From IMG/VR virus record IMGVR_UViG_2639762987_000002: a DNA stretch of 64,000 nt; one strand, 5' to 3'. Below are positions 20,225-24,358 of the stretch, one piece after another. This DNA is from a virus. Taxonomy: Duplodnaviria > Heunggongvirae > Uroviricota > Caudoviricetes. The stretch's first letter is position 1. Each line of letters opens with the position of its first letter. Both the position numbers and the translations under genes were made by a program. The notes under the pieces were generated by a model. That model worked only from the letters and a program-made list of their open reading frames with translations, was not told the origin of the DNA and ran no database searches.

Positions 20225-20707
20225 ATGGCGGTAGTTGTGAAAGCTGACTTGTCAAAAATCCCCTCTATTTCAGGAAATAATGGTTATTCACTTCGTTGTG
20301 AGGAAGTAAAGATAAACGGTGAGTCGGCATATTGCAGCTACTCCGTTTGCCAGCACACCATTCTTGCCTTCAAAGAAAACCGTCTTCCTCGAACTTCATT
20401 CCAGTCGTGCGCAACCGCTATCAAAGCAGGCAAATGCAAGGCGTTAAAAATGATGGTTGAAGAGATTCGTAAAGGAGAATCTCTGTATTTCGAAGATATG
20501 ACCGTGCTCATTAAGGAGGTTGAAGAACGGAATAAACAAGCCAGAACTTTAAAACGAAAACGTGACAGTGTAACGATTAATGGCATGGTTAAGAAGAGCA
20601 CCACATCACAAACAGCGATCACTGACGTGTATGCGGCGTTGCTTGAAGAAACAACAAAAGAAACACATGAGCAAATCGATCAACATATGGAGGTAAAACA
20701 ACAATGA
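20225..20707 (+). CDS. Hypothetical protein
   Basis: 160 aa; several Cys; overlaps ligase start. Confidence 0.45.
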   Translation: MAVVVKADLSKIPSISGNNGYSLRCEEVKINGESAYCSYSVCQHTILAFKENRLPRTSFQSCATAIKAGKCKALKMMVEEIRKGESLYFEDMTVLIKEVEERNKQARTLKRKRDSVTINGMVKKSTTSQTAITDVYAALLEETTKETHEQIDQHMEVKQQ

Positions 20708-22026
20708 AAAAGTTGATCGCACTTAAGCATAAGCTGGACGAAATGAAAGCTATGGGAACCAATGCAAAAAAAGAGGCATTGGCCAACATGGATGACTTCG
20801 AGCAAAGCATGGTTTCATTGATGCTCAACCCTTTCATCCGTTTTGGGGTAAAGAAATACAAAGTGGCAGAGCCGCTTAGTGAGTCCATCCCAAGTGACGA
20901 AAAAGCCATTGATGTACTGAATAAGCTGGCCTCTCGCGAGCTAACGGGGAACGCAGCAATAGCAGCTGTTGAGTCTATCGTGGCGTCAATGTGCGCCGAT
21001 GGGCAGGACGTGTTCCGTCGTTTCCTCTTAAAAGACCCGAAAGCAGGTGTTGGGATTAGCCTATGCAACAAGGTTTTTGAAAATCCCATTCCGAAATTCG
21101 AGGTGCAGCTGGCGTCACCGTATAAAGAAAAAGGCGACAAATACCCCTTCAAGCCAAATCCTAAAGCAAAATGGCCGATGATTGGCAGTCTTAAGCTCGA
21201 TGGTTTGCGAGTAATTTGCGAGGTTATTGTTGACGAGGAAGAGGTTAACTTCCTTTCTCGTACTGGTAATCCAATCACGTCTCTCGATCACCTAAAGCCA
21301 GCAATGCTCGAATTAGGCAAACTTTCAGGCCACAAACACATCTTCTTCGATGGTGAAGGAACTGCCGGTTCATTTAACCAGTCCGTATCTGCATTGCGCA
21401 AAAAGAACGTGCAGGCAATTGGCGCTATTTATCATGTTTTCGACTTCTTCCTACCGGAATGGCGAGCACAGGCTAAATCCAAAGAGTATGCAAAGACAGG
21501 TATGAAGCTGAAAGAGCGCCTGGCTATGCTGGTGGCGTTGTTCAAAAACGATCGCAGTGAAGGCTACACACAAGACATTCACCTGCATCCGTTCTATATC
21601 ATCCATAGCCACGAAGACTTCATCGAACGCTTCATGAAACGCCTGGACGATAACGAAGAAGGGGAGATGGGCAAAGATCCGAACTCTGTTTACGAGTTTA
21701 AACGTACCCGCAGCTGGTGGAAGTTAAAAGACGAAGATTCAGAAGATGGTGAAATTATCGACTTTGAGCCGGGCGACCCGGACTCTGGTTTTGCCAACAC
21801 ACTTGGAAAAATTGTTATTCGTCTTGAAAACGGCGTCATCGTTCGTGCGAGCGGCATTAAGCATAAATATCTGGATGAGTTCTGGAACAACAAAGAGAAG
21901 TACCGTGGTCGTATTGTCGAGGTTCATTGTCACGAGAAAACACCGGACGGCAGCTTACGCCACCCACGACTGAAATGGCCGCGTTGCTTACGCGATACAG
22001 AAGATCGAATCGGAGATAAAGAATGA
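20704..22026 (+). CDS. ATP-dependent DNA ligase
   Basis: 440 aa; adenylation motif I SLKLDGLR (KxDG). Confidence 0.7.
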   Translation: MKKLIALKHKLDEMKAMGTNAKKEALANMDDFEQSMVSLMLNPFIRFGVKKYKVAEPLSESIPSDEKAIDVLNKLASRELTGNAAIAAVESIVASMCADGQDVFRRFLLKDPKAGVGISLCNKVFENPIPKFEVQLASPYKEKGDKYPFKPNPKAKWPMIGSLKLDGLRVICEVIVDEEEVNFLSRTGNPITSLDHLKPAMLELGKLSGHKHIFFDGEGTAGSFNQSVSALRKKNVQAIGAIYHVFDFFLPEWRAQAKSKEYAKTGMKLKERLAMLVALFKNDRSEGYTQDIHLHPFYIIHSHEDFIERFMKRLDDNEEGEMGKDPNSVYEFKRTRSWWKLKDEDSEDGEIIDFEPGDPDSGFANTLGKIVIRLENGVIVRASGIKHKYLDEFWNNKEKYRGRIVEVHCHEKTPDGSLRHPRLKWPRCLRDTEDRIGDKE

Positions 22027-22202
22027 TGCTCGGCTGGATGATTGCATTTTTAGCAGTTGGTTTTTTCATAGGTATTGTGGTGATGTCCAGTTGCATCAAT
22101 GACTACATTAAAAGCGGTGTTATAGAAAGACGCGGTCGTATTTATCGCATTGTAGAAATAACCAACACCCTGAAGGAGATTAAGGATGATCGTATTAAGT
22201 AA
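22023..22202 (+). CDS. Small membrane protein, paralog family member A
   Basis: 59 aa, below ORF-track cutoff; ATGA overlap with ligase stop; TM helix then RGRIYRIVEIT motif. Confidence 0.4.
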   Translation: MMLGWMIAFLAVGFFIGIVVMSSCINDYIKSGVIERRGRIYRIVEITNTLKEIKDDRIK

Positions 22203-22401
22203 ACGGGAGAAGGAAACGCTTCATGAAATCAGTAAGTGGCCGGAGTTCCCTGAGTACTGGAAGCCTAAAACGCGAGCTAAGTTAGAGCGTTTAGGGTTGG
22301 TTGCAAACGTTTCTGAAACGTGGTGTTCGGCCAACTACCAGTTAACTGATAAAGGGAAAGTATTGCTACAGCAATTAGTAGAATCAGGAGTGTTAAAATG
22401 A
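22186..22401 (+). CDS. Hypothetical small protein
   Basis: 71 aa; RBS AAGGAG. Confidence 0.45.
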   Translation: MIVLSKREKETLHEISKWPEFPEYWKPKTRAKLERLGLVANVSETWCSANYQLTDKGKVLLQQLVESGVLK

Positions 22402-22550
22402 TTCCATACATCTCATTAGCTTTTATGGGTGGCTTCCTTATCGGCTTCGGCATCTGTCGTGATTTAATTAAGCAGGAACTTAAAACCAAAACACTGTGCA
22501 TCGGAAAGCGTGTGTATCGGGTAGTTCATGAAACAAAGGTGAAAAAATGA
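22398..22550 (+). CDS. Small membrane protein, paralog family member B
   Basis: 50 aa, below ORF-track cutoff; ATGA overlaps at both ends; TM helix then GKRVYRVVHET motif paralogous to 22023-22202. Confidence 0.4.
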   Translation: MIPYISLAFMGGFLIGFGICRDLIKQELKTKTLCIGKRVYRVVHETKVKK

Positions 22551-22837
22551 GCAATTTAACTTCTTGGGAATGGTGGTTGGCCACCTATTTCTTAGCGGCC
22601 GGAGTCGCATTCGCCTTTTACGTAGGTCAGTTAGTCGTAAAACTGTTGCTGATTAAATTTGCTAGTCATAAACGTATCGATGATGGTCTGTGGCGTCTTG
22701 GCACCCTAGTGGAAACTCGCTACGGGCAACTTAAGGAGAACGAAACCATTACTATCCAAGCGAAACGATTCACTGCCACCATTACAAGAACACCTAGTCG
22801 TAGAGTGGCCTTGATCAAAAAAGTCACAACCGAATAA
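22547..22837 (+). CDS. Small membrane protein
   Basis: 96 aa; N-terminal TM helix; start overlaps upstream stop. Confidence 0.45.
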   Translation: MSNLTSWEWWLATYFLAAGVAFAFYVGQLVVKLLLIKFASHKRIDDGLWRLGTLVETRYGQLKENETITIQAKRFTATITRTPSRRVALIKKVTTE

Positions 22838-23039
22838 AAACATATTGATAAGTATTTACTTACTTATCTTTTGTGTATAAGATGACTTTGTTTTCGTTGA
22901 GACGCGACTGTTTGAACTTAAATACAAGTGCAAACGAAGAAGTCTATCTGGCAGTAGCCTAATAAGCCAAACACCAGCGAGGTCAGTTTCCAGCCTCGTT
23001 ACCGAAATGGGACACACTGAGCGAGTGTGATTGCAGAAC

Positions 23040-23420
23040 GCAGGAGGGAACATTCATGTTCCCTCCGATGAAGTAACAGAATGGGCGGTTGGTATATTTT
23101 CAACTCCATATGACTCCCGGATTCTTAGCCACTGACCGCCCATCCTGTTACGTCATTTTGTTCAATTATGTCGTTTATACTGGGTTAAAAAGCGGCGACG
23201 TAGCCCGGCTGGTATGGTTAGCCAGCACACAACGTTGAGGCCATTACATTTTTATCAATTCTAAGGTTCTATTCACAGAGATACCGGCGAGCGTTGATAT
23301 GTAACATGTTGGGCAAACATTCAATCGGAGTAGTGGCCTCAACGTTGTGAAGACGGGATTGTTGTGTAGGTTTAACCACTGTTGCCATTGGTGCCTGTTT
23401 TCACAACAAATGATTCCATA
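23040..23420 (+). ncRNA. Candidate structured non-coding RNA region upstream of tRNA cluster
   Basis: No ORF over 60 codons; perfect hairpin 23043-23066; long-range complementarity 23076-23089 with 23135-23148 and 23228-23244 with 23343-23359. Confidence 0.3.
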
Positions 23421-23615
23421 CATCACATTGTATAAATTACAAAGTAGGTGCTGTCCTCAGAAACATCATCTACTTAAAGATTTTGCCTTCTACTATTGAG
23501 CGAAGTCGAAAGCGTCTGGCACTAACGAAAAGTGCAAGTAGCGGTGCGTTTCCTGGCAGAAACTAAACCGTCGCGATTGGCACTGTTGAGTAATAAATAC
23601 TGGCAGTGCTGAATT

Positions 23616-23690
23616 GATGGTGTAGCTCAGCGGTAGAGCAGTTGGCTGTTAACCAACTGGTCGGTGGTTCGAATCCACCCACCATCGCCA
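23616..23690 (+). tRNA. tRNA-Asn (anticodon GTT)
   Basis: Manual fold: acceptor GATGGTG/CACCATC, anticodon loop CTGTTAA, T-loop TTCGAAT, 3' CCA. Confidence 0.75.
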
Positions 23691-23695
23691 ATTTA

Positions 23696-23782
23696 GGGGA
23701 GTTAGTCCGTAGAGGTAGCGGTGTAGACTGTAAATCTACTGTCATGGCGACTCGGGTGGTTCGACTCCATCACTCCCCACCA
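23696..23782 (+). tRNA. tRNA-Tyr (anticodon GTA), long variable arm
   Basis: 87 nt; acceptor GGGGAGT/ACTCCCC, anticodon loop CTGTAAA, T-loop TTCGACT, 3' CCA. Confidence 0.65.
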
Positions 23783-23786
23783 AATT

Positions 23787-23862
23787 GCCGGTTTAGCTCA
23801 GTTGGTAGAGCGCCTGCCTTGTAAGCAGGATGTCAGCGGTTCGAGTCCGTTAACCGGCACCA
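23787..23862 (+). tRNA. tRNA-Thr (anticodon TGT)
   Basis: 76 nt; acceptor GCCGGTT/AACCGGC, D-loop AGTTGGTAGA, anticodon loop CTTGTAA, T-loop TTCGAGT, 3' CCA. Confidence 0.8.
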
Positions 23863-24079
23863 ACACAACAGGAAAGAGCATTGAAAACCGCCGAGACTGC
23901 CCTGTTTTAAGCGTAAGTCCGTGCAAACGTCATACAGTGCTCTTTTCGTTGTGGTTGATGCGCAGACTGATGCGCGGAAAGAAATGCCCCAGCGACACAC
24001 GAGGCGAGTTCACACACTGCAATGCAGTCAGTAGCCGGGGTCGCTAAGCCGGAGATCAGTACCGGTAACCACAACAATT

Positions 24080-24166
24080 GGAGAGTAGGGAGCATGGTGC
24101 TCAAGCGGTCTTGAAAACCGTCCCATTGTGCAAACGATGATGGTTCGATTCCATTACTCTCCGCCA
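24080..24166 (+). tRNA. tRNA-Ser (anticodon TGA), long variable arm
   Basis: 87 nt; acceptor GGAGAGT/ACTCTCC, anticodon loop CTTGAAA, T-loop TTCGATT, 3' CCA. Confidence 0.65.
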
Positions 24167-24320
24167 GACACAGCGTTGAGCGGTTTGGCCTTTTAATCAA
24201 CTCGATTAAGACTCCGCTAACATAAACCAGACCGCTCAACGCTGTGATAGATAATTACGGCAGACGTTCTTAACCATAGCTTGCTAACATCCTAGCAACA
24301 CTTTTTTCAGCGCAAAATTC

Positions 24321-24343
24321 AAAGGGGCTTCGGCCCCTTTTTT
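24321..24343. terminator. Bidirectional rho-independent terminator
   Basis: AAAGGGGC-TTCG-GCCCCTTT with A-run before and T-run after; sits between tRNA cluster and the end of a minus-strand gene. Confidence 0.8.
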
Positions 24344-24358
24344 GTTGAACAGTGCAAT

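Follow-up and report, generated by a model that had tools for sequence, protein, structure and literature searches.

The tmRNA-SmpB system (transfer-messenger RNA with its protein SmpB) is the universal bacterial system for ribosome rescue and tagging, and several phages depend on it. In Escherichia coli the tmRNA tag is ANDENYALAA, and A86, at position -4 of the resume codon, is a known determinant of the frame. In alpha-proteobacteria, beta-proteobacteria and cyanobacteria tmRNA can be made of two pieces, of which the coding piece must base-pair with a separate RNA that carries the tRNA-like part. In the catalogues consulted here, phage tmRNAs are listed only for mycobacteriophages, which have full tmRNAs in cluster C and a form consisting only of the tRNA-like domain (TLD) in phage DS6A, and for Bacillus phage G (PMC4131195, PMC11915505). 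The DS6A mini-tmRNA has been described as inhibiting the tmRNA of its host (PMC4131195). Here we describe an RNA element in a 64,000-nucleotide stretch of phage DNA, IMG/VR record IMGVR_UViG_2639762987_000002 (the window), whose core module of about 160 nt (22888-23049) is the mRNA-like half of a tmRNA, encoded upstream of a cluster of tRNA genes. The family to which it belongs is an unannotated but widespread phage RNA, a TLD-less relative of tmRNA with a 5' end that is complementary to tmRNA itself. All features discussed below lie on the plus strand unless stated otherwise.

The core module comprises a leader, a tag reading frame, a hairpin resembling helix 5 of tmRNA (P5) and two pseudoknots (PK-A and PK-B). 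A covariance model of the module (R1) was built only from an alignment (A3) of 26 diverse phage sequences outside the lineage of Salmonella phage SSU5, to which the window belongs. In this alignment 94% of cells are paired, versus 35-46% in controls with slid partners; 13 pairs are changed on both sides (68 cells), none of 500 shuffles reaches the observed score, and the second stems of both pseudoknots covary. The model matches the window at 22888-23049 with 73.6 bits (E 3e-17), its single match in the 64 kb, and it also matches all tested SSU5-like loci, including that of the virulence plasmid pMT1 of Yersinia pestis. P5 (22948-22977) is formed by CUGG 22948-22951 with CCAG 22974-22977 and, inside, by GGC 22950-22952 with GCC 22966-22968, and it encloses the stop codons of the tag. 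In the SSU5-like sequences, which were held out of the model, P5 and the first stems of PK-A and PK-B are 100% paired, with CUGG/CCAG replaced on both sides by CUGA/UCAG. PK-A (22978-23012) pairs CGAGG 22978-22982 with CCUCG 22994-22998 in its first stem and loop bases UUCCA 22988-22992 with UGGGA 23008-23012 in its second; both stems are 100% paired with double changes in the 26 non-SSU5 sequences, and the second occurs as CCGA/UCGG, CCAG/CUGG, CCAA/UUGG, GUCG/CGAC and CUCCA/UGGAG. PK-B (23013-23041) has a covarying first stem of CACAC 23013-23017 and GUGUG 23025-23029 that is 99-100% paired. Its second stem, GCG 23021-23023 with CGC 23039-23041, covaries strongly in other lineages (GCCC/GGGC, GCCCUGA/UCAGGGC, ACGGGAG/CUCCCGU, GCCCAC/GUGGGC), is weak in the SSU5-like lineage and is not convincing in the window itself. 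An equivalent of the pseudoknot PK1, which in tmRNA lies upstream of the resume codon, was unsupported: the leader helix is paired in 50.6% of cells in SSU5-type sequences and in 84% elsewhere, with little covariation.

Within the core lies a tmRNA-type tag frame, GCA AAC GAA GAA GUC UAU CUG GCA GUA GCC UAA UAA (22930-22965), which encodes ANEEVYLAVA followed by two stops and has no start codon; the corresponding tags are ANEDTYLAVA in SSU5 and ANDNQYLAVA in Klebsiella phage pJN2-26. In order to sample the family, pattern scans of IMG/VR were combined with annotated phages, giving 122 unique cores, of which 37 representatives were used for the analysis of leaders. Thirty-seven unique tag DNAs encode 20 peptides, all of 10 codons and all fitting AN[DE]xx[YFVI]L[AM][VA]A. 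The first in-frame stop falls exactly at codon 11 in 47 of 48 unique 36-mers, and neither a stop nor a frame had been required in their selection. These 48 sequences give 21 distinct peptides in the tag frame versus 34 and 31 in the other two, both of which carry internal stops (in 45 and 25 of the 48 variants). Third codon positions are the most variable, with synonymous changes such as GAC/GAU, UAU/UAC and GUN, and the final alanine uses all four GCN codons. The tag frame is thus under selection at the level of the peptide.

This constraint is not that of a conventional gene. The spacing between the only upstream ATG and the tag differs by 0, 1 or 2 nt among relatives, and in SSU5 and pJN2-26 the tag comes after an in-frame stop, with no start codon in between; because of these frame-shifting indels and upstream stops, and because it lacks a start codon, the tag frame cannot be a normal open reading frame (ORF). 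Mechanical ORFs do exist here, among them a 29-codon frame with a GTG or ATG start (22873-22962) and a 65-residue frame on the minus strand, and the pJN2-26 record annotates a 46-residue hypothetical protein on that strand. A small protein gene is, however, contradicted by the same indels and stops, as well as by the internal stops in the two other frames. A DNA element such as an origin, an attachment site or a binding array fits no better, since only a below-threshold promoter-like site, and no pattern of repeated sites, is present ahead of the tag, while covariation of the G.U type and a strand asymmetry of 20 kcal/mol in folding point to an RNA of the plus strand. We give next to no credence to either a small gene or a DNA element. 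A +1-frame ORF beginning at an AUG or GUG that overlaps the resume codon was also considered and rejected, its start being CUG or CAG in some lineages and its stops inconsistent.

The tag is preceded by an A/U-rich linker (22914-22929), in which there is an A at -4 (22926) and another at -3 of the resume codon. Three positions never vary in the 37 representatives or in the 122 unique sequences, namely A at -4, A at -3 and U at -1; the segment from -6 to -1 as a whole occurs as AUAAAU, AUAACU or ACAAGU. These invariant bases may act as their counterparts do in tmRNA.

The second property that ties the element to tmRNA is its leader, which is 40 nt long in the window. Leaders were compared by RNAduplex with the authentic E. 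coli ssrA sequence taken from a RefSeq genome, with 100 dinucleotide shuffles per leader. In the window the leader holds an antisense 'seed' in two segments (22890-22913): GUUUUCGUUG (22890-22899) is complementary over a 10-bp helix to CGACGAAAAC, tmRNA nt 95-104, which is tag codons 2-5, and GCGACUGUUU (22904-22913) over another 10-bp helix to AAAUAGUCGC, tmRNA nt 82-91, which takes in the upstream region and G90-C91 of the resume codon. Together they give a predicted duplex of 20 bp (2 of them G.U) with tmRNA nt 81-105, at -26.3 kcal/mol. The motif GUUUUCG is found in 122 of 122 unique cores, 40-60 nt 5' of the resume codon. For all 37 representative leaders the best duplex falls at the same tmRNA site, beginning at nt 49-81 and ending at nt 104-107 (129 for two long-leader forms), a span reaching from the 3' part of PK1 across the A-rich linker and the AGUC|GC resume site to tag codons 1-5. 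Duplexes of 36-43 bp, at -40 to -49 kcal/mol (z -2.9 to -7.8), are predicted for the long leaders found in HK620 and in Klebsiella, N4-like and Kuttervirus forms. For 25 of the 37 leaders (z -3.6 to -7.8) none of the 100 shuffles is as good.

Several observations bear on whether this complementarity is directed at the host. The HK620 leader pairs with host tmRNA at -31.4 kcal/mol versus -14.7 kcal/mol with the resume region of the phage's own RNA, and CGAAAAC, the host codons that match the seed, occurs in no phage tag. The tmRNA target is near-invariant across the Enterobacteriaceae, and leader variants retain pairing mainly through wobble (GCGAUU, GCGGCU and GUGGCU, 19 sequences versus 8 with mismatches). 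Preference for host over self, loss of CGAAAAC from the tags, upkeep of wobble pairs and an invariant target all fit a leader that is selected to pair with a host RNA rather than with itself. The rest of the phage RNA gave only loop-rich, non-credible duplexes with tmRNA in RNAduplex. Two further matches were seen. The leader alleles AAACUGACC (loci L123, L142, L153 and others) and AAACGAACC (L119 and L013) fit the host PK1-loop alleles GGUUGG, of E. coli, Citrobacter and Raoultella, and GGUUUG, of Enterobacter, Serratia, Erwinia and Lelliottia; this match of CUGACC and CGAACC to the two host alleles may be phage-host covariation. In addition, GGGCGGUUGG at 23076-23085 of the window is identical to nt 54-63 of E. 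coli tmRNA PK1, which is perhaps meaningless, about 0.2 such 10-mers being expected by chance.

Since the tag is selected as a peptide but has no start codon, since the RNA has no TLD of its own, and since the complementarity of the leader is the only evident link to a TLD, we propose that the phage RNA could form a heterologous, virus-host hybrid two-piece tmRNA. The phage RNA would anneal to the single-stranded resume region of host tmRNA at nt 82-105, where it would cover bases 1 and 2 of the resume codon together with tag codons 2-5, and because the pairing is antiparallel it would leave the duplex next to host PK1. The A/U-rich linker (16 nt in the window and 9-16 nt in the family) would then present the phage resume codon at the place of the host codon, in a geometry resembling that of the host's own resume codon after PK1. 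The alanylated host TLD and SmpB would still rescue the stalled ribosome, which would copy the phage tag, giving AANEEVYLAVA instead of AANDENYALAA. That the RNA acts on host tmRNA in some way seems to us reasonably probable. The full hijack, in which the phage template is decoded through the TLD of the host, is a tentative proposal to which we give somewhat less than an even chance. Its extension, that enterobacterial phages and phage-plasmids, including pMT1 and Salmonella plasmids of about 106 kb, carry a trans-acting surrogate template whose phage-specified tag is appended by rescued ribosomes, is possible but should be held with considerable reserve.

A number of points weigh against the hijack. 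The whole analysis is computational. The duplex of the window leader is not significant by energy alone, with 6 of 100 shuffles as good, and what speaks for it is the coincidence of its site and the conservation of its motif. The tmRNA target is A-rich and the leaders are U-rich, and differences in dimer minimum free energy (ddG) of -5.5 and -11.1 kcal/mol are equivocal, the dimer of Felixounavirus HY02 using other pairs. A test for covariation between host and phage has no power because the target is near-invariant. The helicase of the ribosome could read the host frame through a 10-bp helix, pairing of the long leaders would unfold host PK1, and we know of no precedent for an mRNA-like domain that acts in trans through a foreign tmRNA. 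The phage tags are still degron-like, with no obvious advantage in the swap, and the model leaves the extension of about 570 nt that follows the core (23043-23615) unexplained.

The same data on leader complementarity would apply if the element were purely an anti-tmRNA antisense RNA or sponge, whose leader blocks tagging or triggers cleavage of tmRNA and whose tag and pseudoknots are an untranslated scaffold or decoy. Prophage-encoded RNAs that act against small RNAs by mimicry or pairing are known, and the duplex of 36-43 bp formed by long leaders would be a plausible substrate for RNase III. An antisense role nevertheless leaves unexplained the fixed length of 10 codons, the stop at codon 11 in 47 of 48 sequences, the synonymous variation, the L[AM][VA]A end and the A at -4, and we consider it unlikely.

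Surrogate templating through host tmRNA supposes that the phage RNA has no acceptor of its own, and the searches agree with this. With ARAGORN, neither the window nor any of 16 related loci gave a tmRNA. Rfam at the gathering threshold found nothing beyond tRNAs in the 64-kb window, and at E <= 10 on 22838-23615 it found no GOLLD, ROOL or other large non-coding RNA family. The best Rfam match, a weak one, is RF04321 tmRNA_permuted (22.7 or 14.9 bits, threshold 47), with scores of 17.3 bits for RF01850 (threshold 84) and 11-12 bits for RF00023 (threshold 47), and the Rfam tmRNA models align to the tag frame only. A T-arm or CCA minihelix was not found in 22838-23615 by eye, nor did a by-eye search for non-canonical acceptor or T-arm mimics give any with G3:U70 or CCA. 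As no tRNA-like domain was found by ARAGORN or Rfam, the element is not a tmRNA, and as it has no acceptor stem, T-arm or CCA, it cannot be alanylated. Candidates for a TLD in cis were a T-loop-like hairpin AUGAUUCCAUACAU (23409-23424) and a 5'-half-like segment GCGGCGACGUAGCC (23192-23205), as well as two features described below, the pseudoknot PK-C and the modules flanked by CACAAC and GUUGUG; they were rejected, having no acceptor stem with G3:U70 and no CCA end.

An acceptor piece could instead be encoded elsewhere, or be one of the neighbouring tRNA-like modules that escaped detection, in which case the phage would have a genuine two-piece tmRNA of its own. Modules derived from tRNA do accompany the element, the one directly after PK-B in Klebsiella phage KP591P1 (locus L120) has a canonical T-arm, the tRNA cluster of HY02 contains an odd tRNA-like element as well as an arrangement resembling a permuted tRNA, and DS6A provides a reciprocal, TLD-only mini-tmRNA (PMC4131195). 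Against this, no module is common to all lineages, and around the HK620 element neither a tRNA gene nor a tRNA-like one lies within +/-2.5 kb. On inspection by eye, the tRNA-like modules all lack G3:U70, and a CCA follows just one of them. The ORF list, ARAGORN and Rfam revealed no acceptor piece in the 64-kb window, and a self-sufficient phage tmRNA would leave the match of the leader to host tmRNA unexplained. We regard this alternative as quite unlikely.

The tRNA cluster itself, as called by ARAGORN and Rfam, consists of tRNA-Asn (23616-23690), tRNA-Tyr (23696-23782), tRNA-Thr (23787-23862) and tRNA-Ser (24080-24166). For 24079-24166 the best Rfam match is tRNA-Sec, at 44.8 bits (threshold 47), while ARAGORN calls tRNA-Ser; the anticodon reads UGA rather than UCA. 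Between tRNA-Thr and tRNA-Ser, the spacer (23863-24079) holds two hairpin modules that are flanked by CACAAC and GUUGUG, resemble tRNA remnants and are homologous to modules in HK620, KP591P1, P7 and D6. In KP591P1 one such module (L120 2679-2777) has a tRNA-like core with the T-arm GGGUUCGAGUCCC and scores 23 bits, below threshold, with the Rfam tRNA-Sec model. The CACAAC/GUUGUG modules look like decayed class-II tRNA genes in which leader and trailer would pair. In HY02 (L121 1756-2182 and 2741-2978) elements not called by ARAGORN occupy gaps of the Felixounavirus tRNA cluster. One is tRNA-like, with an acceptor stem, an encoded CCA, an 'anticodon' loop of 9 nt and a T-loop, UUCAACU, of the tmRNA style; in the other a T-arm and 3' acceptor strand are directly followed by a 5' acceptor strand and D-arm, which is the order of a permuted tRNA.

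The core is present in 692 phage records from temperate and virulent families, among them HK620/HK633, Felixounavirus, Kuttervirus, N4-like Gamaleyavirus, Akiravirus and Klebsiella siphoviruses of about 46 kb. It is also carried by 350 of 5,426 complete E. coli genomes (6.5%), in 141 chromosomal and 219 plasmid places, none of which PGAP annotates. No description of this RNA family was found in the searchable literature, and the template-only family of enterobacterial phages is absent from the tmRNA catalogues (PMC4131195, PMC11915505); nor did the searchable literature and catalogues yield any TLD-less tmRNA relative or tmRNA-targeting RNA. The genome announcement of a kuttervirus states 'tmRNAs: 0'.

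In five groups, the SSU5-like, Klebsiella sipho-, Felixouna-, Kutter- and N4-like phages, the core lies upstream of or inside tRNA clusters; in HY02 it occupies a 247-nt gap between tRNA-Ile and tRNA-Arg and has its own consensus promoter. This position, and a lineage-specific region 3' of the core that is built of hairpins resembling tRNA remnants, would suit an RNA that serves phage tRNA operons as a structural leader or as a scaffold for processing, like the stable RNAs of T4, and whose resemblance to tmRNA is a functionless relic. In HK620/HK633, however, the core lies between pR'/qut and the late terminator tQ, so that in HK620 it belongs to the pR'-tQ late leader, with no tRNA in the vicinity, and a relic would not be expected to keep a peptide-level constraint or a tmRNA-matching leader across unrelated phage families. 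A scaffold of this kind therefore seems very unlikely. In HK620 (L119 2308-2340, 2925-2951 and 3037-3062) the element is placed 5' of tQ and past a terminator-like hairpin in the annotated qut region, which suggests that it is made mainly late, on antitermination by Q.

Returning to the window, expression of the element probably begins at a putative sigma-70 promoter (22855-22883) read from the sequence, TTTACT 22855-22860 and TAAGAT 22878-22883 at a spacing of 17 nt, with a predicted transcription start at about G22890. Its score of 8/12 is under the threshold of the promoter scan. The same geometry, with the -10 box ending 6-7 nt ahead of GUUUUCG (GTTTTCG), is seen with better hexamers in other lineages, namely TTTACC-17-TATAGT in locus L005, TTTACT-17-TATGAT in pJN2-26 and TTGACA-17-TATAGT in HY02, and in all four the spacing is such that the predicted start is the first G of GUUUUCG. 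The plus strand from 22890 to 23615 (726 nt) folds at -251.8 kcal/mol, versus -197 +/- 5 for dinucleotide shuffles (z -10.3), and 20 kcal/mol better than the minus strand. Alternation of G-C and G-U pairs in 15 SSU5-like relatives fits pairing on the plus strand only, and this covariation together with the strand asymmetry argues for a plus-strand RNA. The first intrinsic-terminator-like site downstream, and the likely end of the operon, is at 24321-24349; as there is none ahead of 24321, the stretch is probably one operon transcript. A structured RNA of about 726 nt thus probably runs from the conserved promoter to tRNA-Asn (23616) as the 5' leader of the tRNA operon, and cleavage by RNase P at 23616 would free it. 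A long-range closure of CGCGAC 22902-22907 with GUCGCG 23570-23575 was rejected, being uncompensated in relatives.

The 3' part of this RNA, about 570 nt (23043-23615), is a structured extension specific to SSU5-like elements. It was here that the original prediction, which proposed candidate small RNAs in an ORF-free region (22847-23600) upstream of the tRNA genes, had placed its structures, and the three that it picked out are conserved, with compensatory changes, in the 15 SSU5-like relatives. The perfect 11-bp hairpin is present exactly where it was placed, at 23043-23053 with 23056-23066, and 5 of 7 scored pairs are changed on both sides among the relatives. The complementary pair 23076-23089 with 23135-23148 is real as well and is the core of a 22-nt, 91% complementary stem (23068-23089 with 23135-23156) within a long hairpin of about 22-27 bp with a variable tip (23066-23160); an A.C mismatch in the window is A-U or G-C in relatives, and G-C alternates with G-U. 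The third pair exists but was misplaced: its 3' arm is 23330-23349, about 12 nt from the proposed 23343-23359, and it pairs with 23228-23247. It forms a stem of 19-20 bp, CACAACGUUGAGGCCAUUAC with GUAGUGGCCUCAACGUUGUG, around a variable interior (23228-23349); 5 of its pairs are changed on both sides, and SSU5 has a U.G wobble.

Between the last two stems lie PK-C and a hairpin (23166-23226). In PK-C, UUAUGUCGUU (23166-23175) pairs with GGCGACGUAG (23194-23203) and loop bases CUGGGU (23180-23185) with GCCCGG (23203-23208), with conserved stems. By eye, the loop of the window pairs as CUGGGUU/AGCCCGG and that of SSU5 as UUGGGUU/AACCCGG. The hairpin that follows, GCUGG 23208-23212 with CCAGC 23222-23226, becomes GCUGA/UCAGC in locus L008. 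Further 3', a helix of GUUGUGAAGACGGG and CCUGUUUUCACAAC (23344-23407) shares the GUUGUG strand and is fully compensated in pJN2-26, as UGUGGUCACGG and CCGUGGCCACA (by eye). The remainder (23409-23615) begins with an invariant block, AAUGAUUCCAUACAUC (23409-23424), and continues with the hairpins GCAC 23519-23522/GUGC 23532-23535, in which two pairs are compensated in the pJN2-26 group, and GCGG 23541-23544/CCGU 23567-23570, and with a terminal hairpin at about 23578-23611. The stems of the extension share the design flanked by CACAAC and GUUGUG with the spacer modules of the tRNA cluster.

The region first picked out as structured is therefore essentially right, far beyond chance, although its content differs from what had been supposed. 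The flagged hairpins belong to the lineage-specific extension, whereas the widely conserved 5' module of 160 nt went unnoticed, and the most informative feature inside the region is the overlooked tmRNA-like tag frame at 22930-22965. That no ORF exceeds 60 codons is not literally correct, since mechanical minus-strand ORFs of 65 (22856-23053) and 60 residues (23244-23426) exist, but indels of 0, 1 or 2 nt in close relatives fall inside the longer one and no record annotates a conserved gene there. A structured, conserved, non-protein-coding RNA region linked to the tRNA cluster is borne out; a generic set of small RNAs is not, and the region looks instead like one leader RNA of about 0.73 kb with no terminator before 24321. 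The Rfam scan that had been named as a check gave only tRNAs and the weak tmRNA matches on the tag frame. The premise that the element sits in a large virulent phage fails because the relatives of the window are SSU5-like temperate phage-plasmids with an integrase and a repressor nearby.

The window itself is such an SSU5-like temperate phage-plasmid, elements that are about 105-115 kb in size. Over 22847-24250 its identity is 96.9-98% with Escherichia phages CMS-2020a and Cyrano and about 84% with SSU5 and pJN2-26; in Cyrano the integrase and repressor genes lie a few kb downstream of this region. All of these relatives have an annotation-free stretch of about 750 bp here, bounded by tRNA-Asn at one end and, at the other, by a small gene that comes after the DNA ligase gene, and 773 plasmid records match it, including pMT1 and SSU5-like Salmonella plasmids of about 106 kb. 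The upstream protein gene of the window ends at 22837, leaving only about 90 nt, with the promoter inside, before the tag. Upstream, 20704-22837 holds the gene of an ATP-dependent DNA ligase with a KxDG motif, along with four tiny ORFs that are in part hydrophobic; several records label one of the four as a 'C-type natriuretic protein', an evident annotation artefact. In pMT-1 of Y. pestis KIM10+ (L004 1501-2019) the homology to the window RNA ends at about window position 23351, 12 nt before caf1R, which indicates that the F1 capsule (caf) locus lies within the 3' half of the RNA gene, where it takes the place of tRNA-Asn. The pMT-1 copy keeps an intact promoter, leader and tag (ANEDTYLAVA).

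If tagging is redirected or blocked by this RNA, a new layer of phage-host conflict over proteostasis would be exposed. If the hijack is true, it would be the first virus to reprogram trans-translation and the first mRNA-like domain to work in trans, proving by a natural example that trans-translation can take its template in trans, and possibly offering a tool for programmable tagging. The family, which is invisible to ARAGORN, Rfam and PGAP, merits an Rfam entry even if the mechanism is wrong. It also accounts for a conserved 'gene desert' in the genomes of many phages that are employed in therapy and biocontrol.

Among known systems, the stable RNAs of T4, species 1 and species 2 (rnaC/rnaD), are alike in being structured non-tRNA RNAs co-transcribed with a phage tRNA cluster, but they are about 120-140 nt long, have no reported tag frame and showed no similarity to the element by any search. 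Prophage-encoded base-pairing or anti-sRNA RNAs and pR'-leader small RNAs of lambdoid phages, such as AgvB/AsxR and StxS, also act by complementarity on non-coding RNA of the host, and the HK620 element shares with StxS its place in the pR'-tR' leader. They showed no sequence relation to the element, however; they are short Hfq-dependent small RNAs that have neither pseudoknots nor a reading frame and are not known to target tmRNA. The element also resembles tmRNA (SsrA; RF00023, clan CL00001). Both have a start-less frame that opens with GCA AAC GA. and ends in a hydrophobic xAxA followed by a stop, with A at -4, stops inside a helix 5-like hairpin and H-type pseudoknots after the tag, and the phage tag differs from that of E. 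coli by one residue class. The phage RNA differs in having no acceptor stem, T-arm or CCA, two pseudoknots rather than three and, in the lineage of the window, no supported PK1; its sequence 3' of the tag is unrelated, and its 5' end is antisense to tmRNA itself. It resembles the coding piece of two-piece tmRNA (RF04321) in consisting only of a template and pseudoknots. In the known cases, however, both pieces derive from one permuted gene and are paired through the acceptor stem and helix 2, whereas the phage encodes no acceptor piece and its only evident partner is the complete tmRNA of the host, met at the template region. Like the tmRNAs of DS6A, of cluster C mycobacteriophages and of phage G, the element is a phage-borne tmRNA derivative; those keep the tRNA-like domain, through which ARAGORN or tFind can find them, while the enterobacterial family is the reciprocal case, with the template only. 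In kind it is a new tmRNA-related variant, and the hijack of host tmRNA, if it holds, would be categorically new.

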